IMG/VR virus record: IMGVR_UViG_3300046804_000816
Span: 12,274 to 76,273 of that record
DNA: 64,000 bases
Origin: a virus
Reading direction: 5' to 3' (one strand)
Each line of letters opens with the position of its first letter. Position 1 is the stretch's first letter. Below are positions 2,337 through 48,471 of the stretch, in pieces. The position numbers were made by a program, and so were the translations under genes. A model generated the notes under the pieces. That model was not told the origin of the DNA. It was given only the letters and a program-made list of their open reading frames with translations, and ran no database searches.

Positions 2337-2365
2337 TTGACAATCCAGTCATCCCGTGGTATCAT
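2337..2365 (+). promoter_or_regulatory. Early sigma70 promoter flanked by inverted repeat
   Basis: TTGACA-17-TATCAT; TACCACGGG (2326-2334) / CCCGTGGTA (2353-2361). Confidence 0.85.
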
Positions 2366-2389
2366 TAAGCCAAGATGAAAGGTTTCGCT

Positions 2390-3031
2390 ATGATCAAGTT
2401 GTCCAAGGCTTCCAAGATGCCGGCTAAGTCCTGGTCGCTCCAGGCCCGTGCTACCTGCCCTGGTTCTATCGACAAGGCTACCAAGTTGCCCGTTGCTGTT
2501 TGCGCCGGTTGTTATGCGAACGAAGGCTTCTATATGATGCCCGACGCGATCAAAGTCCGCGAGCACAATCGCGAAGACTGGAAGCGAGCAGAATGGGTCG
2601 ATGATATGGTCAAAGAGTTGAAGCGGCAGAAGTTCTTCCGCTGGTTTGATTCTGGCGACGTATATCACCCCGCGCTCGCGTTCAAGATCTTTTTGGTTAT
2701 GCAGAAGACGTCGCATGTCAAGCATTGGCTTCCTACCAAGTCTTACAAGGTACCGCGTATCCGCGCGATCCTGGAGCGTATGAAGACTCTTGACAATGTG
2801 TCCGTCCGCTATTCGTCAGATTCTATGACTGGCGAGTTCGAGGCGGATCACGGCTCGACGGTTATCCCGTTCGCTGATAGCGAGACGAGCGCGACTAAGG
2901 TTTGCGATGCGTATGAGCGCTCTGGCAAATGTGGCGACTGCCGCGCCTGCTGGAACAAGGAAGTCGCTGTTGTTGCGTATCCGGCCCACGGTCGTCGTAT
3001 GGGTCGTATGGTGAAGGACTTGGCTGCATGA
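2390..3031 (+). CDS. GP88-family (radical-SAM-like, Cys-rich) protein
   Basis: TCPG...VCAGCYA, FRWFDSGD, HWLPT, C-terminal CGDCRACW; SD supports ATG 2390. Confidence 0.75.
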   Translation: MIKLSKASKMPAKSWSLQARATCPGSIDKATKLPVAVCAGCYANEGFYMMPDAIKVREHNREDWKRAEWVDDMVKELKRQKFFRWFDSGDVYHPALAFKIFLVMQKTSHVKHWLPTKSYKVPRIRAILERMKTLDNVSVRYSSDSMTGEFEADHGSTVIPFADSETSATKVCDAYERSGKCGDCRACWNKEVAVVAYPAHGRRMGRMVKDLAA

Positions 3032-3153
3032 GAAAGAATCATATAGCGAAGGATCTTCGCACACCTAAATATCGTATGCGCGTCGTGCGATCTCGCAAGG
3101 CGTACAAAAGAAAAGGTCGCGTAGCTCAGCTGGATAGAGCATCAGACTTCTAA
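3028..3153 (+). CDS. Small basic ArfA-like protein, running into tRNA-Arg
   Basis: ATGA overlap with upstream stop, GAAGGA SD; MRKNHIAKDLRTPKYRMRVVRSRKAYKRKG resembles ArfA core N.I...L..P.FR.RV...K..Y.RKG. Confidence 0.55.
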   Translation: MRKNHIAKDLRTPKYRMRVVRSRKAYKRKGRVAQLDRASDF

Positions 3154-3191
3154 TCTGAGGGTCGATGGTTCGAATCCATCCGCGATCGCCA
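3115..3191 (+). tRNA. tRNA-Arg(TCT)
   Basis: Cloverleaf, TCAGA-CT-TCT-AA-TCTGA, CCA. Confidence 0.95.
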
Positions 3192-3204
3192 TTAGGAGAG
3201 TAAC

Positions 3205-3495
3205 ATGAAAGTCGTAGCATTAGCCGCCGTCGCCATGATTGCATTGACTTCCACCGCAGAAGCGCAGTATCGTCGCGATCATCGCCATGGCTACCGCGCG
3301 CCAGCGCCGCACTATCATGTCGCGCCTCGCCGCAACAACTGGGTGCCATACGCCGTCGGTGGACTTGCGCTCGGCGCTCTTGGTGCTGGTGCATACTATT
3401 ACAATCGTCAGCCCGTATGTTGGGATGAACCAGTTTACAACTACGACAGATACAATCGCCCTCGCTTGATGGGATACGAAAGAATCTGCCAATAA
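3205..3495 (+). CDS. Small secreted protein (BA14K-like rhizobial type)
   Basis: Signal peptide ending AEA, Arg/His/Tyr-rich segment, GGLALGALGAG glycine zipper, terminal Cys pair. Confidence 0.6.
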   Translation: MKVVALAAVAMIALTSTAEAQYRRDHRHGYRAPAPHYHVAPRRNNWVPYAVGGLALGALGAGAYYYNRQPVCWDEPVYNYDRYNRPRLMGYERICQ

Positions 3496-3864
3496 ATGGA
3501 GATGAGTGTGACCAAGATAGTATATAATGCTTGCTACGGTGGCTTTGGTCTTTCACATAAAGCGATCCGTCGTTATGCAGAACTGGCTGGATATACGGTT
3601 CAAGAAGTCGTCTACGAAGGTATGCAGGATAGAACATATCTTGACATTATAGATAAGAACGGCGAACAAATGTGGGATAGCGATATCAAGCGCGATGATC
3701 CGTTCCTCGTTCAAGTCGTAGAAGAACTTGGCAAAGAAGCGAGCCATGATGGAGCTGATTTGCGTATCGAGGATCTTCCTTCTGGGACTAAATATCGAAT
3801 CGAAGAATACGATGGATATGAAACCATCGAAACAATAGACGATATTAGATGGAGTATAGCATGA
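3496..3864 (+). CDS. Conserved phage hypothetical protein
   Basis: N.CYGGFGLS...R.DP.LVQVVEELG...Y.IEEYDG.E motif common in phages. Confidence 0.75.
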   Translation: MEMSVTKIVYNACYGGFGLSHKAIRRYAELAGYTVQEVVYEGMQDRTYLDIIDKNGEQMWDSDIKRDDPFLVQVVEELGKEASHDGADLRIEDLPSGTKYRIEEYDGYETIETIDDIRWSIA

Positions 3865-4091
3865 AGAAGATCTTGATTGTTTCGGGAATTGGTCTTGCGT
3901 TGGCTGGATGTAGTGCAACAACGACTACGGTGTACACTCGTCCAGTTCCTGCGGTTGCGGTTCATCATCCGCTTCCATCCGCGTATCCTGGCGCGCCATA
4001 TCCGTATCGTCGGCCGCCTGTGCATTGCTATAGTACATGGGATCGCACGCCGTATGGTATGCGCGAGCGTCGTATCTGCCAACGTTGGTAG
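3861..4091 (+). CDS. Small Pro-rich lipoprotein
   Basis: MKK-hydrophobic-LAGC lipobox. Confidence 0.7.
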   Translation: MKKILIVSGIGLALAGCSATTTTVYTRPVPAVAVHHPLPSAYPGAPYPYRRPPVHCYSTWDRTPYGMRERRICQRW

Positions 4092-4275: not shown

Positions 4276-4602
4276 ATGTTAAGAGCGTTCATCATCTCTG
4301 CGACTGTTCTGTTCGCAACTCCCGCCCTTTCTAAGGGAGAGATGAACGCGACTTGGTATCAATGCTGCAAACGAACAGCCAACGGCGAGAAGTTTGATCC
4401 TAATGGTATGACAGCCGCGCATAGAACGTATCCATTTGGTACTATGTTGCGCGTCACACACAAGGATAAGTCCGTTGTTGTTCGTATAAATGATAGAGGA
4501 CCGTTTAGAAAAGGATATCAGTTAGACTTGGCTCGAGGTGCTGCATTTGCCATTGGATGTCGTAGTTCGTGCAAAGTGAAATATGAAATTATTCCGCGAT
4601 AG
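4276..4602 (+). CDS. rlpA: RlpA-like double-psi beta-barrel lytic transglycosylase
   Basis: TANGEKFD...TAAHRT.PFGT..RVT....VVVRINDRGPF.....DL; signal peptide; stop lies inside tRNA-Asn. Confidence 0.9.
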   Translation: MLRAFIISATVLFATPALSKGEMNATWYQCCKRTANGEKFDPNGMTAAHRTYPFGTMLRVTHKDKSVVVRINDRGPFRKGYQLDLARGAAFAIGCRSSCKVKYEIIPR

Positions 4603-4668
4603 CTCAGCTGGTAGAGCAGGTGACTGTTAATCACCGGGTCCCTGGTTCGAGTCCAGGTCGCGGAGCCA
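4593..4668 (+). tRNA. tRNA-Asn(GTT)
   Basis: Cloverleaf, GTT anticodon, CCA. Confidence 0.95.
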
Positions 4669-4721
4669 TTTTTAAGTATGCGAACGACGTCTTTTTGAAA
4701 AGTATGCGTTCGACTACTTTT

Positions 4722-5313: not shown

Positions 5314-5388
5314 GCTACCTGAGCAGGACGGTAATGCGCGGGACTGCAAATCCTTGAGAACCCAGTTCAATTCTGGGAGGTAGCTCCA
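5314..5388 (+). tRNA. tRNA-Cys(GCA)
   Basis: GCA anticodon, U73 discriminator, CCA. Confidence 0.9.
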
Positions 5389-8921: not shown

Positions 8922-9824
8922 ATGAAAATTCTTGTTTCGTTTTCCGGTGGATTTGATTCCACTTACATTATGTACAAATTGTTGACAGAAACGACACATG
9001 AAATTACGGCTGTATGCTTTTATGGTTATCATAAAGATATTTGTATGAGCGCTCAGCCGTCTTTGAGTAAGATTCAGCCCAATCTCGATATAATAGTGCA
9101 AGAGCTGAAAAAGATCAGAGACTTCACGTTTATCACGAAAGAAATACAACGCGAAGAATTTACTGAAGACAATGCGTTTCTATCGCGCTATATTGTAAAA
9201 GACAAGCTGCATGCAATCGCTAGCGGTCCTTTAGATTATTTTATTTGGTGGGCGATTCCAGGAGTTAATGCTGGATCGTACGATACTCTCGTGCATGGCA
9301 TTTCCTGGGAACAAATGCGCAAGAAATATAAAACGACAGATGGAACTGAAGGAAGTCCGAAGCACGTCGAAGCAGAAAAGAAACTGAAACAATATGCGCC
9401 CACTGCTCGTATGTGGTTTCCATTATTGAATCATGATTTTCATTATCAGTTTAACAGATGGCATATCTTTAAGTACATGCCAGAAAACCTGCAGAGATAT
9501 TGCATTTCTTGTGCGTCGCCAACTGTCAATGAAGAATCAATAAAAGAACCGTGTGGATATTGTTTCAAATGTTTGTGGGATAAGTTCACTAAGAATGTCG
9601 TTGAACACGATGTGATGAACGCGGAACAGCTTGAAGAATATCGCTATAAGAAAGCATTAGAGTATGGTGGCGGAAATGGCATTACAGCCACTATGCGTTA
9701 TTGGATTCCCGTAGAAATGCAAGCCCAAAAATCGTATTATCATGTTGATGGACTTGTTCTCGACACCAAAGAAAAGGTGCAGCAATATATGCAGAACAAG
9801 AACTTCGACTATCTTGTGAAATAG
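8922..9824 (+). CDS. PP-loop ATPase (QueC-like, divergent)
   Basis: ILVSFSGGFDS PP-loop; SC...PCGYCFKC zinc site; last base of stop is +1 of tRNA-Ile. Confidence 0.75.
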   Translation: MKILVSFSGGFDSTYIMYKLLTETTHEITAVCFYGYHKDICMSAQPSLSKIQPNLDIIVQELKKIRDFTFITKEIQREEFTEDNAFLSRYIVKDKLHAIASGPLDYFIWWAIPGVNAGSYDTLVHGISWEQMRKKYKTTDGTEGSPKHVEAEKKLKQYAPTARMWFPLLNHDFHYQFNRWHIFKYMPENLQRYCISCASPTVNEESIKEPCGYCFKCLWDKFTKNVVEHDVMNAEQLEEYRYKKALEYGGGNGITATMRYWIPVEMQAQKSYYHVDGLVLDTKEKVQQYMQNKNFDYLVK

Positions 9825-9899
9825 GGCGTATAGCTCAAGCGGTAAGAGCAGGCGCCTTATAAGCGTCCGATCTGGGTTCGAGTCCCGGTACGCCCACCA
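9824..9899 (+). tRNA. tRNA-Ile(TAT)
   Basis: GGCGC-CT-TAT-AA-GCGTC, A73, CCA. Confidence 0.9.
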
Positions 9900-15560: not shown

Positions 15561-16946
15561 ATGGTCAAGAAAATCTTTTTAGAAAAGTCTTATCGCGATC
15601 AGATGGATCATGTTCTGGGTAAGTTCCTGGATCATGATTGCTATGATCTTGTGCTTACTGAAGACACTGATGTTTATGAGCCATTGACGCCACTACAGAT
15701 TATGATGGGCGAAACACATAGCGAGAAGAACATTCTGTGCAAGTTCCGTAAGAATGTGTTTCCTAAAGAGATGACCGATAAGGCTTATACTGCGCTTCGT
15801 TCCGGCGCGCTGATGTCAGACAATCGTGGTCTTGCTGCAGGCATCGAGCGCGATACTGAGTTTCAGAAACTGCCAGACGGTCAGGGGCAGCGTCGTTGGG
15901 TTACGCAACGCGAGAAAGCTGTTCTTCAGTATATCATGGATGGCAGTCCTAAGTCGATTGCTGGTGAAGATCGGCTGCTGGAAATCTACGAGACTACATC
16001 TAACAAACCTTTGCAAGGACGTGGCTCTGGTGCTAACAAGTCTCTCGCAGAAATTGGTGCTGGTGCTATCTGGATCGTGCATAAGACGACTGAGTTCAAG
16101 TTCGACGACTGGTTCTTTTCCATCAAAGATCTTTCTCCCGAAGAACGTAGAGACAAAGCGCAGTATGTTCTCGATGAACTGATTTCTGCTTCAACGTATG
16201 CTAATGGCGTTCGTTCAGGCGTCGGTGGCTTCATGGATCGCTATCCGCGTATTCCATTCTGTCGTGAGACTGGCTGGAGTGCGAATCACAAAGAACTGTA
16301 TGAAGACGCGCTTCCGCTGTTCCATGCTGCTGCGAATGTTTACAAGAACGAGCTTCCCGTAAGATACATGGGTCAGATGGAAGCTATGGAGCGTCTTGGT
16401 CCTGATTGGCAGATTGGTCATACGCCTTACACAACGCTCACTATCAATCGCGACTTCCGCACAGCAGCGCATCGCGACGTTGGTGATCTCTGCGAGTCCT
16501 GGGAAACGCATGAGAATCCGCGTGGATTTAGCAATTTGCTCGTACTAGATAATGGAAAGAACTACAACGGATTTTATCTGTGCTTCCCTGAGTTCCGCGT
16601 TGCAGCAGATATTCGTGCTGGCGATTTGATTATGATGAACGCGCATCGTATTCATAGCAATAGTCCTGCATTTGATTATGAAGAAGGCTTTGAGCGTATG
16701 TCGGTCGTGATGTACTTCCGCGAGTCCATGCTTAATTGTGGCTCTAAGAAGTACGAAGAAACGAGAAAGCGTTTTGTTTATTCTCGTCGCGATAATAAAG
16801 ATCATCCTCTCTGGCATACAGGTTGGAATGGTGTCTCACCAAATATGTGGGAAACTGAAGAATGGGCTAACTTCTTGGGTAACAGCGGATTCCCAGAGGA
16901 AGCAAATGAAATCCTACATAATCTTGGTCTAGAGCCAGCGCACTAA
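15561..16946 (+). CDS. TET/JBP-family 5-methylpyrimidine dioxygenase
   Basis: NRGLAAG, GFMDRYPRIPFCRET, TTLTINRDFRTAAHRD (HxD), LCFPEFRVAADIRAGD..MMNAHRIHSN (distal H), ERMSVVMYFRE (2OG-binding R). Confidence 0.9.
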   Translation: MVKKIFLEKSYRDQMDHVLGKFLDHDCYDLVLTEDTDVYEPLTPLQIMMGETHSEKNILCKFRKNVFPKEMTDKAYTALRSGALMSDNRGLAAGIERDTEFQKLPDGQGQRRWVTQREKAVLQYIMDGSPKSIAGEDRLLEIYETTSNKPLQGRGSGANKSLAEIGAGAIWIVHKTTEFKFDDWFFSIKDLSPEERRDKAQYVLDELISASTYANGVRSGVGGFMDRYPRIPFCRETGWSANHKELYEDALPLFHAAANVYKNELPVRYMGQMEAMERLGPDWQIGHTPYTTLTINRDFRTAAHRDVGDLCESWETHENPRGFSNLLVLDNGKNYNGFYLCFPEFRVAADIRAGDLIMMNAHRIHSNSPAFDYEEGFERMSVVMYFRESMLNCGSKKYEETRKRFVYSRRDNKDHPLWHTGWNGVSPNMWETEEWANFLGNSGFPEEANEILHNLGLEPAH

Positions 16947-16959
16947 CAAAGGATTTGTA

Positions 16960-18519
16960 ATGTATTGTGTGATTCCAGCTGCGGGTCGTGGTGTTCGTTT
17001 CCATGAGCTCGGAAAGCACTACCCCAAATGTGTTCTTCCGTTTCAAGATGTACCAATTATCGTTCACAACATTAGACTGGCTCTCGATTCGGGAGCCAGA
17101 GAAGTATGTATCGTAGTCGGACATCAAGGAAACAAGATTCGCGAAATCGTTGGGATGTACTTTCCTGAAGATCCACGAATTGTGTTTGAAGAATACAGAA
17201 CAGCCGCAGATAGAGAAGGACCTGGCGTCTCGATCTACTGCGGCATCCCTTCAGATATCAAAGAAGAACCTGTTCTCGTTCTTCTCAGCGATATCGTCAT
17301 TACTTCTCCCACGCTAAATTCATACAGAACGTCCTGGATTAGCACGCAGAAAGTTGCTGATTGGGAACGTTGGTGTATGGCTGAAATAAAAGAAGACGAA
17401 ATCGTTGCATTTCATGATAAGCCAAGAGATATGCCACCAACAGATCGTGCTGTCAGTGGCGTTTACTATTTCCAGAACGGTGAGTTCTTTAGACATTGCT
17501 TGATTGATGCAATTCATGGTACGCGCGAAGGAGAAGTACAAATATCTTCTGCGATGTCGCGTTACATGAAGCAAGAAAAGATTCACAGCAAGAATCTTGA
17601 TATCATTGACTTTGGCACGCTGGAAGAATATCTTCAGAACAGAAGCGTTCCCAATTCGCGCAGTTTCAATAGTCTCTTTCCCTCCAGCGACGGCACGACT
17701 ATCACGAAGACTTCTGTCGTTCATCCAGACAAGATTCATGCAGAAGCGAACTGGTACGATAATCTACCGACTCCCATCAAAGTGATGACGCCACGCATCT
17801 TCGACAAGAAGTTGTATGGCGATCGTCCGACTTACACGATGGAGCGCGTCGATAGTCCTACGTTGCGCGAGCTTTATCTGTATCTCGAATCTGATCCTAT
17901 CTTCTGGGCTGAGATCTTTACGAAACTGTTTGATCTTACCGACAAGTTCAAATTCTATTTCAAGCCAGGCAAGCCACAGTTCTTCAAGAAGATTGCTGAG
18001 AAAACCCATCAGCGATGCTTGCTGATTGAGAAAGATAGTCCTAGATGCCAGGACGTTGACTTTATAGAAAAGTTCACGAAGATGGCTGAAGACGGCGAGT
18101 TTGATATATTCCCCGATTCGCTGTTTCACGGCGATCTGTGCTTCTCGAATGTGTTCTTTCATCCAGGCAGCAAACAGATCAAGCTGATCGACCCGCGCGG
18201 TGATGCGTACGGTAACATTCTGTATGATTTGGCTAAGATTACACATTCAGCCTATTATCCATACGACTATGTGGACGCGGAGCTTTATCTAAATAAGAAT
18301 GGCGAGACGTTGTACTTTGATAGTGGTAAAGAAATTGTTCGCCAAGCATACAAGAAACTATTCGTAGCCAAATATGGCGAATCTGCTTGGCGCATTAATT
18401 TGTTCTTGACAGCGTCTCTATTTTTGAGTATGATACCACTTCACTCACACAACAAGGTGAATCAAGAGTTATTCTATGCCCTCTATCGTAAGGCGGCCGC
18501 AGACAGCGGAATTGTTTGA
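16960..18519 (+). CDS. Sugar-phosphate nucleotidyltransferase fused to APH/choline-kinase-like kinase
   Basis: IPAAGRGVRF....PKC N-domain; FHGDLCFSNV, LIDPRG, YDLAK, LFLSMIPLH kinase domain. Confidence 0.9.
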   Translation: MYCVIPAAGRGVRFHELGKHYPKCVLPFQDVPIIVHNIRLALDSGAREVCIVVGHQGNKIREIVGMYFPEDPRIVFEEYRTAADREGPGVSIYCGIPSDIKEEPVLVLLSDIVITSPTLNSYRTSWISTQKVADWERWCMAEIKEDEIVAFHDKPRDMPPTDRAVSGVYYFQNGEFFRHCLIDAIHGTREGEVQISSAMSRYMKQEKIHSKNLDIIDFGTLEEYLQNRSVPNSRSFNSLFPSSDGTTITKTSVVHPDKIHAEANWYDNLPTPIKVMTPRIFDKKLYGDRPTYTMERVDSPTLRELYLYLESDPIFWAEIFTKLFDLTDKFKFYFKPGKPQFFKKIAEKTHQRCLLIEKDSPRCQDVDFIEKFTKMAEDGEFDIFPDSLFHGDLCFSNVFFHPGSKQIKLIDPRGDAYGNILYDLAKITHSAYYPYDYVDAELYLNKNGETLYFDSGKEIVRQAYKKLFVAKYGESAWRINLFLTASLFLSMIPLHSHNKVNQELFYALYRKAAADSGIV

Positions 18520-28994: not shown

Positions 28995-29686
28995 GATTTG
29001 ATCATAGTCCTCATATAGATTTACCAAGAGCAAAGCAAATCAACACACCATCGGGGCGTCGCTATCAGACCCCCGATGGAAACGTATATCCTTCAATCAC
29101 TACAGTTTTGGGCGATCAGCCTGAGAAGAAGAAAGCCATTGCCGAGTGGCGTGCTCGCGTTGGTGCAGAAGAAGCAAACAAGATCAGCTCGCAAGCTGCT
29201 AGGCGTGGCACCGATCTTCATAATCTCATGGAAAAGTATATTCTAGGAGACGAGATTGATGCAAAGAAAATCATCCCTTCGACCCTCGCACGTTTTCGTC
29301 CTGTTCAAAAATGTTTGGACGACAATCTACAACTTGTGTATGCGTCTGAAACACCGATGTTCTCAGACATTCTCCGCATCGCGGGGACAGCAGACCTAAT
29401 CTGTGAGTGGAATGGAGAAGTGACCGTTGTCGATTTCAAGACAGCCACGAAGATGAAGACAGCCAGCATGATCACCGATTACTTCTTGCAGGCTACAGCC
29501 TATTCGATTATGTTCGAAGAGCATACTGGTATCGAATGTCATCACTTCGCCATTCTTATGATTTCTGACGAAGGCGAGTTCCAAGTATTTCCAGGGCGTC
29601 GTAATGATTATGTTCGCGATCTTATTCGCGTGAGGGATCAATACGAATGGAGGAAAAGTCTTGACAACCAGAGCAAAGCCAGCTAG
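28991..29686 (+). CDS. PD-(D/E)XK Cas4-like exonuclease
   Basis: YPSITTVL, RGT..H, AGTAD, DFKT, YFLQ..AY. Confidence 0.9.
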   Translation: MRFDHSPHIDLPRAKQINTPSGRRYQTPDGNVYPSITTVLGDQPEKKKAIAEWRARVGAEEANKISSQAARRGTDLHNLMEKYILGDEIDAKKIIPSTLARFRPVQKCLDDNLQLVYASETPMFSDILRIAGTADLICEWNGEVTVVDFKTATKMKTASMITDYFLQATAYSIMFEEHTGIECHHFAILMISDEGEFQVFPGRRNDYVRDLIRVRDQYEWRKSLDNQSKAS

Positions 29687-29689
29687 AAT
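29661..29689 (+). promoter_or_regulatory. Early sigma70 promoter for tmRNA
   Basis: TTGACA-17-TAGAAT. Confidence 0.8.
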
Positions 29690-29696
29690 AAATAAT

Positions 29697-29971
29697 ATGC
29701 TGAGGTCGTTGAGGCGTAAGAAATAAGCGGATCGGACGCGAGGGCAGTACTCGCCGCCTCCACCATGGATACATCGAGAACCCAATATCGGTTCGCAAGA
29801 TAAGATGATGGCTATTGTCGGTGTATCTTTGATGGGGGCGAAATAGGATCGACGGACGTAATAAAGTTGCGAAGAGACCAAAAGCAACGTTTAGATGCAA
29901 ACGATAATGCACCATCTTACGCCCTAGCTGCGTAAACGAGCACGGGAGGCGCTTAGGAACAGAAGCCTCCC
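29697..29971 (+). ncRNA. ssrA: Two-piece (permuted) tmRNA, tag ANDNAPSYALAA
   Basis: Acceptor piece with GGCAGTAC T-loop ending CGCCTCCACCA (29765) precedes coding piece GGGGGCGAAATAGGATCGAC (29834); tag frame 29897-29935; GGCGTAAGA pairs with TCTTACGCC. Confidence 0.93.
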
Positions 29972-29993
29972 ACTCCCACAATCGAGGTGATTT

Positions 29994-47121: not shown

Positions 47122-48471
47122 ATGGATCAACTCACAATTGACTTCAAAATCAAAACATTATATCCTAATCCTAGAAAAGGACAACTGTATATTGTTGACT
47201 GCGTTCCTAAAATGTACGCAGGAACAGATAGCATGTTTGATCTATTTGATGATATGTCGCGTAAATTTCCTACGTTGATTAATTATCAATATATGAACGG
47301 TTATATGAACAATCCGTTCGGATATGTTCCGCCAATTTATAAATTAGATCCTAAGTTCGCTGCTACACTCGTTGCGCTCAACGTTGCTGGACAAATTGGT
47401 AAGATCACCGGATTGGCTAATGGATTCCTTCCTCCAGGATTAGACGGACCAGTACAAGCAATCAAAGGTGTTATATCTAATTTCACAAATCAGATTCCTG
47501 GTCTTTCTGCAGCAGCCGGCGCAGCAGCAGATATCGCAAACAATATTGCAAAAATCACTCAGATCAATACGTTAGTTAAGTTATCTCTTGGTGGACCAGC
47601 AGGATTAGTGTTCAAAGCGATTACTTCTAACTTTGGTTTGCCCGCAATCAGCATTTCAATTCCAGGAGTTAATCTCCAAGTAGAAGTTGCTAAATTAGCA
47701 GCTGCTGCTTCTAATCCAATTGCGTTTGCGGCTCAAGCAGCCTTGATATCTAGAACATTCCCGATGATTAATACAAATATGCTGATCGCAAAAATGTTGG
47801 GAGTTGCAGGAACAGCTGGACGTGATCCTTGTACGGGTCTTCCGATTGGAAAACCGTTTAATATTAAGTCAATGGTACCAAATCTAGCGTTCGCAGCTGG
47901 TGCTATGGCGCTTAAAGCTCTTCCGGGTATTACTCCTACTGGTGATGCGCTGAAACCACAGAAAACAGCAAATCCACCAAAGCCCGTTAAACCAATCGAG
48001 ATGAAAAATCTGTTTGCGGAAGCGGCTGCTGCATCATCATTGTCAACTCTAACACAACCACTTTCTCAGTTCATGGGAATGATGGCTACTATTGCTCCAC
48101 AGACTGCTCTTGTCAAACCAAGTCCTGTAACAACTGCTCTCGGTACACAGAAACTAGTCGGAACATCAAATACAGCGAACTGGGGTTCTGGTGGCTATGG
48201 GCGTGATAATTCAACAGCAGAACTGGAAAGAAAGCGTCTAGAGCTTACTGCTAAGATTGAAAAGCATACTGCAGAACTTGAAGCAATGGTAGATTATAGT
48301 AAGCTCACTTCGATGAGTTATCCAGAACTAATTAAGAAATATCCAAGAATAACGCCTACAATGAGCGTAGCAGAAGCATTGCATATTATTGAAGAAACTG
48401 ATGCAAAAGCTAAAGCAGCAGCTAATACTGCACCTAAAACATCTAATACAACGAGTACTACAACCGCCTGA
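47122..48471 (+). CDS. Hypothetical structural protein, Ala/Pro-rich
   Basis: 449-aa ORF within baseplate operon. Confidence 0.7.
   Translation: MDQLTIDFKIKTLYPNPRKGQLYIVDCVPKMYAGTDSMFDLFDDMSRKFPTLINYQYMNGYMNNPFGYVPPIYKLDPKFAATLVALNVAGQIGKITGLANGFLPPGLDGPVQAIKGVISNFTNQIPGLSAAAGAAADIANNIAKITQINTLVKLSLGGPAGLVFKAITSNFGLPAISISIPGVNLQVEVAKLAAAASNPIAFAAQAALISRTFPMINTNMLIAKMLGVAGTAGRDPCTGLPIGKPFNIKSMVPNLAFAAGAMALKALPGITPTGDALKPQKTANPPKPVKPIEMKNLFAEAAAASSLSTLTQPLSQFMGMMATIAPQTALVKPSPVTTALGTQKLVGTSNTANWGSGGYGRDNSTAELERKRLELTAKIEKHTAELEAMVDYSKLTSMSYPELIKKYPRITPTMSVAEALHIIEETDAKAKAAANTAPKTSNTTSTTTA

Follow-up and report, generated by a model that had tools for sequence, protein, structure and literature searches.

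Can the 5' end of a tRNA take away the stop codon of a ribosome-rescue gene and so place that gene under the control of a transfer-messenger RNA (tmRNA)? This question is raised by a 64-kb stretch of DNA (the window) from the 76-kb IMG/VR virus record IMGVR_UViG_3300046804_000816, a record that is 46% complete. The window has T4-like baseplate genes (gp6-like and gp8-like), 13-14 tRNA genes and a tmRNA of the alpha type, and the phage is a T4-like one from fresh water. On the plus strand, an open reading frame (ORF) of 29 codons at 3028-3114 encodes a small peptide similar to ArfA and runs directly into a tRNA-Arg gene. ArfA (YhdL; PF03889; PDB 5MDV, 5MDW, 5U4I and 5H5U) is a rescue factor of Escherichia coli and other beta- and gammaproteobacteria. 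Both arfA and brfA are regulated through non-stop messages (PMC8012679); BrfA (YqkK) of Bacillus subtilis is a tiny rescue factor dependent on release factor 2 (RF2), and in its gene a rho-independent terminator precedes the stop codon (PMC8012679). From the sequence comparisons described below, the best single reading is that the tRNA joint of the phage ORF would be an arfA-style, tmRNA-gated switch, a reading to which we give a probability of about one half.

A mini-gene that ends at a tRNA

The mini-gene, of the DUF7230 type, comprises 29 sense codons (3028-3114, plus strand), the last of which is AAA, and has no stop codon of its own. The base that follows, at 3115, is the +1 position of a tRNA-Arg(UCU) with an encoded CCA (3115-3191, plus strand). 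ARAGORN, which calls it tRNA-Arg(tct), and Rfam (RF00005, 70.2 bits against a gathering score of 29) agree on the start at 3115, and the tRNA has a 7-base-pair acceptor stem and is a full member of RF00005. The first in-frame stop is a TAA at 3151-3153 (plus strand), made up of the last anticodon base and tRNA positions 37-38 in the anticodon loop; on unprocessed RNA, the frame would be read as far as this TAA and give a 41-residue product. From the general action of ribonuclease P (RNase P), cleavage is predicted between A-1 and G+1 (3114/3115, plus strand), which would leave an mRNA 3' end right after the last full codon, AAA.

At its other end, the ATG of the mini-gene (3028-3030) shares bases with the TGA (3029-3031) of a GP88-family ORF of 218 residues (2375-3031, plus strand; PF17338, 98.6 bits) in an ATGA overlap, and a Shine-Dalgarno-like hexamer, GAAGGA (3013-3018, plus strand), lies 9 nucleotides upstream of the ATG. 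A sigma-70-like promoter (2337-2365, plus strand; TTGACA, 17 nucleotides, TATCAT, with TG), recognised by consensus match only at 11 of 12 positions, precedes the GP88-like gene, and no terminator-like site was found on the plus strand from this promoter to position 4700. A co-transcript of the GP88-like gene, the ArfA-like ORF, tRNA-Arg and the downstream DNA is therefore plausible.

A preliminary description of this DNA had given the same geometry, with an ATG at 3028, 29 codons, the tRNA +1 base at 3115 and a TAA in the anticodon loop, and each of these details is confirmed. By itself such a geometry is not improbable, because the chance that a frame stays open for 29 codons at the base composition of the window is about 18%, and because three real coding sequences in the window lose their stop to a tRNA. 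What lies beyond chance is that the ORF belongs to a conserved family, that its conserved core stops just where the tRNA starts, and that 19 other contigs retain this joint.

The mini-gene is conserved and under selection

Protein searches retrieved 106 relatives with a near-invariant 15-residue core, IAKDLRTPKYRMRVV, and this core is encoded by more than 400 IMG/VR contigs. A profile built from these relatives and the clade that has the tRNA joint found 1221 clusters at an expect value (E) of 1e-3 or less among the 1.84 billion representatives searched. The clade itself is under purifying selection: over 15 distinct DNA versions, the mean synonymous difference (pS) is 0.70, which is near saturation, and the mean nonsynonymous difference (pN) is 0.21, giving a pN/pS of 0.29. 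Even the terminal K-R-K of the clade peptide is retained across synonymous changes (e.g. AGA, CGA, CGC). Every member of the clade has either a Shine-Dalgarno site or the ATGA coupling, and the relatives have AAGGAG or AAGGAA 7-8 nucleotides upstream of the ATG. That ORF 3028-3114 is a real gene is close to certain.

DUF7230 and its likeness to ArfA

The relatives tie the ORF directly to the Pfam family DUF7230 (PF23876). With phmmer, at least 40 clusters were found at E values of 1e-12 to 1e-3, many of them already labelled PF23876; of the 73 relatives that have the 15-residue core, 54 are matched by PF23876 at E ≤ 1, and gene p003 of Acinetobacter phage Acj61 (Acj61p003) scores 47.3 bits. 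The window ORF itself does not reach the PF23876 cut-off of 27 bits, its 41-residue read-through form scoring 17.3 bits (E 0.0052) and the 29-mer giving no match; it also matches phrog_20887 (E 0.002).

Several lines of comparison lead from this family to ArfA. When all six frames of the 76-kb record were searched with PF03889, the window ORF was the only candidate (13.2 bits, E 0.0065); it lies under the gathering score of 25.5 bits, and hmmscan of the peptide gave no match. Three of the 73 relatives match PF03889, the best at E 3.9e-8, because they have the K-K-G-K-G-S insertion of ArfA, and sequences with this insertion bridge the two families. Aligned with hhalign against E. coli ArfA, the family gave E values of 7e-4 to 9e-4 with a probability of 22-26% over 32-34 columns (ArfA residues 12-46), the ArfA profile being shallow, as a search with E. 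coli ArfA gave enterobacterial sequences only, at least 80% identical among those listed. All seven matches in a profile search of the PDB were either ArfA chains (E 0.5-0.8) or N-termini of the ribosomal protein uS14 (E 0.15-0.36); single peptides run by phmmer against the PDB gave a weak uS14 match only, or none. Relatives with a hairpin after the core (see below) score on both the DUF7230 and the ArfA models, as L206 does with 23.1 and 19.1 bits, respectively. Finally, the KH motif, through which ArfA and BrfA contact the mRNA entry channel (PMC8012679), is part of the family consensus Y-x-R-K-x-K-H. The window ORF has the basic tail R-S-R-K-A-Y-K-R-K, and its 29 codons stop short of the KH position.

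On this evidence we take DUF7230 to be a mostly viral, divergent offshoot of the ArfA kind. That the ORF belongs to an ArfA-like phage family is highly probable. Judged from the alignments, its link to ArfA appears to be real but distant, and we do not file it as an ArfA member at the Pfam level; a ribosome-rescue function of its product seems likely. The likeness to the ArfA core that the preliminary description had seen in the peptide is thus upheld by the PF03889 search, the hhalign comparison and the three matching relatives. A full-text search of a literature collection turned up neither a paper that deals with DUF7230 nor one on an ArfA encoded by a phage, and to our knowledge ArfA, BrfA and ArfT, a third such factor, are known only from bacteria. 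A predicted complex of Caulobacter RF2 with a clade peptide scored 0.24 against a mark of 0.32, which weighs neither way.

The N-terminal half of DUF7230, K-x-N-P-I-A-K-D-L-R-T-P-K-Y-R (window 3031-3087), resembles the N-terminus of short, zinc-type uS14, K-K-S-M-I-A-K-Q-x-R-T-P-K-F-K. This likeness (E 0.15-0.36) could be chance, convergence on ribosomal RNA binding or a hint of origin.

The joint in clade relatives

The same junction of peptide and tRNA +1 base is present in 19 further IMG/VR viral contigs. A pattern search found 17 of them, in which Y-K-R-K is followed directly by the same tRNA-Arg; the other two (Y-T-R-K) came from a search with the tRNA 5' half alone, in which the joint was not required. 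The joint is invariant across all 19. The peptides are up to 45% different, most having an 11-residue N-terminal extension, and the DNA 3' of tRNA-Arg is unalignable across the clade (41% ungapped identity). The read-through tails are 7, 12 or 26 residues long, as set by the details of the tRNA and not by protein constraint. Conservation of the exact joint was considered as proof of a switch and rejected, since a non-stop message and a read-through product would both tolerate small insertions, and the conservation does not discriminate between them.

Another ArfA-like ORF, in a tRNA cluster (L263, 598-764), runs into a tRNA-like element and has an in-frame TAA in its 'anticodon loop'. The element folds as an acceptor stem, a T arm and an ACCA end; ARAGORN calls it tRNA-Met (690-764), and Rfam gives no match even at E ≤ 1. 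We did not accept it as a second case of the tRNA type and regard it as suggestive only.

Hairpins and terminators at the same place in sister lineages

In the Sinorhizobium phages phiM12 and phiN3, a hairpin of 10 base pairs, seven of them GC, followed by TTTTTT lies inside the ORF (1288-1322 of L184; gene SmphiM12_363 in phiM12); it starts with the first codon past Y-N-R-K-K, and 11 nucleotides separate the end of its T-run from the TGA. A hairpin with the same arms is found at the same place in an unannotated ORF of Agrobacterium phage Atu_ph07. Hairpins of unrelated sequence occupy this spot in L206, L209/211/217, L215, L257/266/268, L207/210/216 and L026, each starting no more than a few nucleotides from the Y-x-R-K core and finishing ahead of the stop. 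The peptides that these hairpins encode have nothing in common; it is the hairpin itself that recurs. The long hairpin of L209/211/217 is possibly an RNase III-type site, and that of L207/210/216 is a terminator composed of A-tract, stem and T-tract, with one compensatory pair. A simple terminator scan flags the phiM12 site; L207 and L266, which rest on RNAfold and RNAalifold, are missed by it because the loop exceeds 8 nucleotides or the T-run is too short.

These hairpin-rich relatives form the subgroup nearest to most members of the clade. For 14 of the 52 distinct ORFs in it, the segment after the core ranks among the lowest 10% of the background for the locus (binomial P 4e-4, with no correction for relatedness). 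The hairpins of the relatives and the tRNA of the present clade have the same starting point, and the layout of those relatives is that of arfA and brfA (PMC8012679). At least three kinds of device that would remove the stop (intrinsic terminators, long hairpins and the 5' end of a tRNA) have been acquired by one family of tiny genes, which we take as convergent evidence that tmRNA-gated expression is the selected trait.

Two loci have further features. In L207, there is a strong promoter-like site (707-734; TTGACT, 16 nucleotides, TATAAT, with TG), which overlaps the terminator in its 3' arm and T-run, and the 'tail' of the L207 ORF is a terminator-promoter spacer. In Ochrobactrum phage ORM_20 (L187, 1196-1392), an unannotated DUF7230-like ORF stays open for about 40 codons past the core and runs antisense into an Rz-like spanin gene.

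A phage-encoded tmRNA

The window encodes an alpha-type (permuted, two-piece) tmRNA at 29657-29974 (plus strand), which matches Rfam RF01849 over its full length (1-355) with 114.5 bits against a gathering score of 50 bits; it was found by Rfam and not called by ARAGORN. According to the Rfam alignment, its tag reading frame (29897-29935, plus strand) encodes ANDNAPSYALAA followed by a stop, a standard degradation tag (YALAA), and the RNA is a full member of the alpha_tmRNA family. That the phage has a tmRNA of its own, as first proposed in the preliminary description, is therefore confirmed. A tmRNA is found in all clade contigs that are at least 50% complete: it is present in the window, in G001 (93% complete), in G003 and in G004, and is split in G002 (90% complete). 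In the latter, the match (133119-133802; L191, L192) consists of two sub-threshold pieces about 400 nucleotides apart, and this tmRNA may be interrupted or degenerate. No tmRNA was found in the cultured phages of the terminator type, phiM12, phiN3 and Atu_ph07, nor in ORM_20. In two clade genomes that are at least 90% complete, no SmpB and no release factor scored above threshold; SmpB and RF2 would therefore be those of the host.

Proposed mechanism

In the switch reading, ORF 3028-3114 would be translated from a transcript shared with tRNA-Arg(UCU), its last sense codon touching the +1 base of the tRNA. Maturation of the tRNA by RNase P would leave the upstream message ending in ...AAA-3' with no stop, and ribosomes that reach this end would stall. 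Host SmpB, together with a tmRNA that could be the host's or the phage's own (tag ANDNAPSYALAA), would then tag the 29-residue nascent peptide for proteolysis. Untagged peptide would be released and would accumulate only if trans-translation were saturated, for example by massive mRNA decay in infection; with host RF2, it could then act as a back-up rescue factor on ribosomes with an empty A site. The 5' end of the tRNA would in this way stand in for the RNase III hairpin or the terminator within the ORF by which arfA and brfA are controlled. In this scheme we infer the in vivo kinetics of RNase P relative to translation, the tagging, the release, the dependence on RF2 and the rescue activity.

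As to what such a factor would be for, it could relieve stalling, caused by mRNA decay in infection or by tRNA-punctuated messages of the phage itself. This is no less likely than the countering of host defences that target tRNA or tmRNA, the conjectural role put forward in the preliminary description. Since several other genes of the phage also lose their stops to tRNAs (see below), the rescue module may partly serve the phage's own non-stop messages. We propose tentatively, as a possibility worth naming, that DUF7230 is the first viral family of ArfA-type rescue factors and that this clade runs a largely self-supplied module, in which its own tmRNA is combined with a tmRNA-gated peptide whose non-stop message arises through RNase P.

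Alternative explanations

A number of observations weigh against the switch. In a rival account, the mini-gene is an ordinary small gene packed against a tRNA. It would then be translated mainly on the precursor RNA, the working product being the 41-residue read-through peptide, and RNase P cleavage would merely limit or waste some of its translation. Other ordinary genes of the window and the clade do stop inside tRNAs. A DPBB/RlpA-like ORF (4276-4602) has its stop at 4600-4602, 8-10 nucleotides inside a tRNA-Asn that starts at 4593 (region 4276-4668), and the TAG (9822-9824) of a 300-residue ORF at 8922-9824 shares its G with the +1 base of tRNA-Ile at 9824 (region 8922-9899). Loci L088, L092, L093, L095 and L103 of the clade hold at least six more ORFs (150-405 codons) whose ends lie 7-12 nucleotides inside a tRNA, and the stop of such ORFs is often a TAG provided by T8-A9-G10 of the tRNA. 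Punctuation of coding genes by tRNAs looks like a habit of this phage group, and so common an overlap in ordinary genes means that the layout may be tolerated genome packing. If these genes are expressed, moreover, much translation must precede tRNA processing, so that the 41-residue form of the mini-gene is probably made too. An exact RNA-library contig (3014-3253) bridges the ORF, tRNA-Arg and the next gene, from which it follows that unprocessed RNA, or DNA carry-over, exists. The contig was found in a search of four river metatranscriptomes, covered as Logan contigs, in which missing cover over 2375-3013 is uninformative.

The relatives supply further points on the same side. Most DUF7230 genes have an ordinary stop, with neither a tRNA nor a hairpin: 60 of 97 lack any hairpin at or below -9 kcal/mol (median structure percentile 0.79), and several of the tails (...ELSYG, ...NYGS) seem to be conserved at the protein level. 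Ordinary stops prevail in the large IAKDLRTPKYRMRVV group, no tRNA is nearby and the segment after the core has less structure than the locus background; hairpin enrichment after the core was looked for in this group and none was found, and we therefore do not claim a stop-less state for the whole family. In one clade relative, L194 (11007-11790), a homing-endonuclease-like (HNH-like) ORF of 190 residues lies exactly between the mini-gene and the same tRNA. The mini-gene there has an 11-residue tail and an ordinary TAA, which is evidently tolerated, and the inserted ORF, having replaced the mini-gene beside the tRNA, stops at T8-A9-G10 in its turn. The joint can thus be lost.

The product itself adds to these points. 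The window ORF is under the curated cut-offs of both PF03889 and PF23876, and after RNase P cleavage its peptide would reach no further than the counterpart of ArfA K42, so that the KH motif would be absent. Only in the read-through product does the tRNA add G-R after R-K, a pattern (R-K-G-R) like the R-K-G-K-H of ArfA and the R-K-G-R/K of the relatives. Shortening to 40 residues inactivates E. coli ArfA, whereas the loss of 17-18 residues is harmless (PMC8012679).

Three observations stand against packing. The read-through tails vary among 7, 12 and 26 residues and track the evolution of the tRNA only; the sister lineages have terminators or hairpins, and not tRNAs, at the same spot, which packing of tRNAs does not explain; and the family affected is the one family known for non-stop control. 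We consider packing, the main rival of the switch, rather unlikely on balance. The switch idea of the preliminary description keeps the support of the ArfA likeness, of the tmRNA and of homologues that end in tRNAs or terminators in several independent lineages (phiM12, phiN3, Atu_ph07 and uncultured phages). It is weakened by the ordinary stops of most of the wider family, by the tRNA overlaps of ordinary genes and by the missing KH.

A second alternative accepts that DUF7230 peptides bind the ribosome and denies that they rescue it. They might sit in the mRNA channel or A site when it is empty and so block host tmRNA-SmpB or ArfB, or they might imitate the uS14 N-terminus, as a means of takeover or anti-defence; the stop-less layout, where present, would then have a different role, for example in keeping a toxic peptide scarce. 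N-termini of short-form uS14 are the best PDB profile matches, slightly ahead of ArfA, and Pfam keeps DUF7230 separate from ArfA. The phage tmRNA is of the alpha type, and ArfA is known from beta- and gammaproteobacteria; pairs of ArfA and RF2 are also reported to be species-specific (PMC8012679). This account is improbable to us, given that the ArfA alignment of 32-34 columns takes in the channel-binding basic tail and the KH motif, that intermediates with the K-K-G-K-G-S insertion match PF03889, and that a tmRNA-gated rescue factor is the simplest explanation of a non-stop layout shared with arfA and brfA.

That the ORF is an untranslated chance opening in the 5' leader of the tRNA, for which the 18% chance of such a frame and the sub-threshold Pfam scores might speak, is very improbable in view of a near-invariant 15-residue motif common to hundreds of viral contigs, a pN/pS of 0.29 at near-saturated synonymous divergence, and the Shine-Dalgarno site or ATGA coupling found throughout the clade.

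Comparison with known systems

Like ArfA, the phage product is a small basic peptide whose message is expected to be stop-less and whose accumulation would be gated by tmRNA. Unlike ArfA, it is encoded by a phage, beside a tmRNA of the alphaproteobacterial type; it lacks the K-G-K-G-S insertion, falls under the PF03889 cut-off and, as a 29-residue product, has no KH. Its stop-less end is predicted to come from 5' processing of a tRNA by RNase P instead of from RNase III or a terminator, and most members of its family, in contrast to arfA, have ordinary stops. BrfA shares with the phiM12, phiN3 and L207-type relatives the placing of a terminator before the stop, a likeness of layout; it is bacterial and confined to Bacillus. 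Where a downstream tRNA is concerned, precedents exist in mRNA-tRNA co-transcripts matured by RNase P, such as E. coli secG-leuU, in which the stop codon lies before the tRNA, and in mitochondrial tRNA punctuation, in which incomplete stops are completed by polyadenylation. In both, as is predicted at ORF 3028-3114, the 5' cut of the tRNA sets the 3' end of the upstream message; at ORF 3028-3114, however, the cut would remove the stop altogether.

In Francisella tularensis, release factors are recruited by ArfT, a rescue peptide of about 40 residues (PMC8012679). Compared by description, ArfT is similar to the rescue factor proposed here in being a peptide of about that size, and differs in working with both RF1 and RF2. 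Phage-encoded tmRNAs are known from the mycobacteriophages Bxz1, Cali, Catera and others and from Bacillus phage G (PMC4131195). The phage of the window likewise has its own ssrA, which differs in being of the permuted alpha type, in its YALAA tag and in its occurrence alongside a stop-less ArfA-like gene.

If DUF7230 peptides do rescue ribosomes, phages would have their own back-up rescue factor, in this clade alongside their own tmRNA, and stalling on broken messages would be a real bottleneck or battleground in infection. If the switch is real as well, RNase P would join the enzymes able to set an arfA-style switch, beyond RNase III cleavage and termination within the ORF.

Other features of the window

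Just 3' of tRNA-Arg, the next gene (3205-3495, plus strand) has its own AGGAG ribosome site and encodes a product of 96 residues with a hydrophobic, signal-peptide-like stretch at its N-terminus. Phage contigs that match the window exactly, within 3014-4058, occur in 2018 river metatranscriptome libraries, and in DNA runs of several studies on fresh water, rivers and estuaries, 33-95% of the sampled words are present. A search by tblastn with ORF 47122-48468 against cultured phages gave no match, so by that gene the phage has no close cultured relative. Rfam recognises a further tRNA at 5314-5385 (47.6 bits) that is not listed by ARAGORN. At 15561-18519, a protein with a Tet/JBP-type 2-oxoglutarate-Fe (2OG-Fe) dioxygenase domain adjoins a nucleotidyl-transferase, and the pair may constitute a DNA base hypermodification module.

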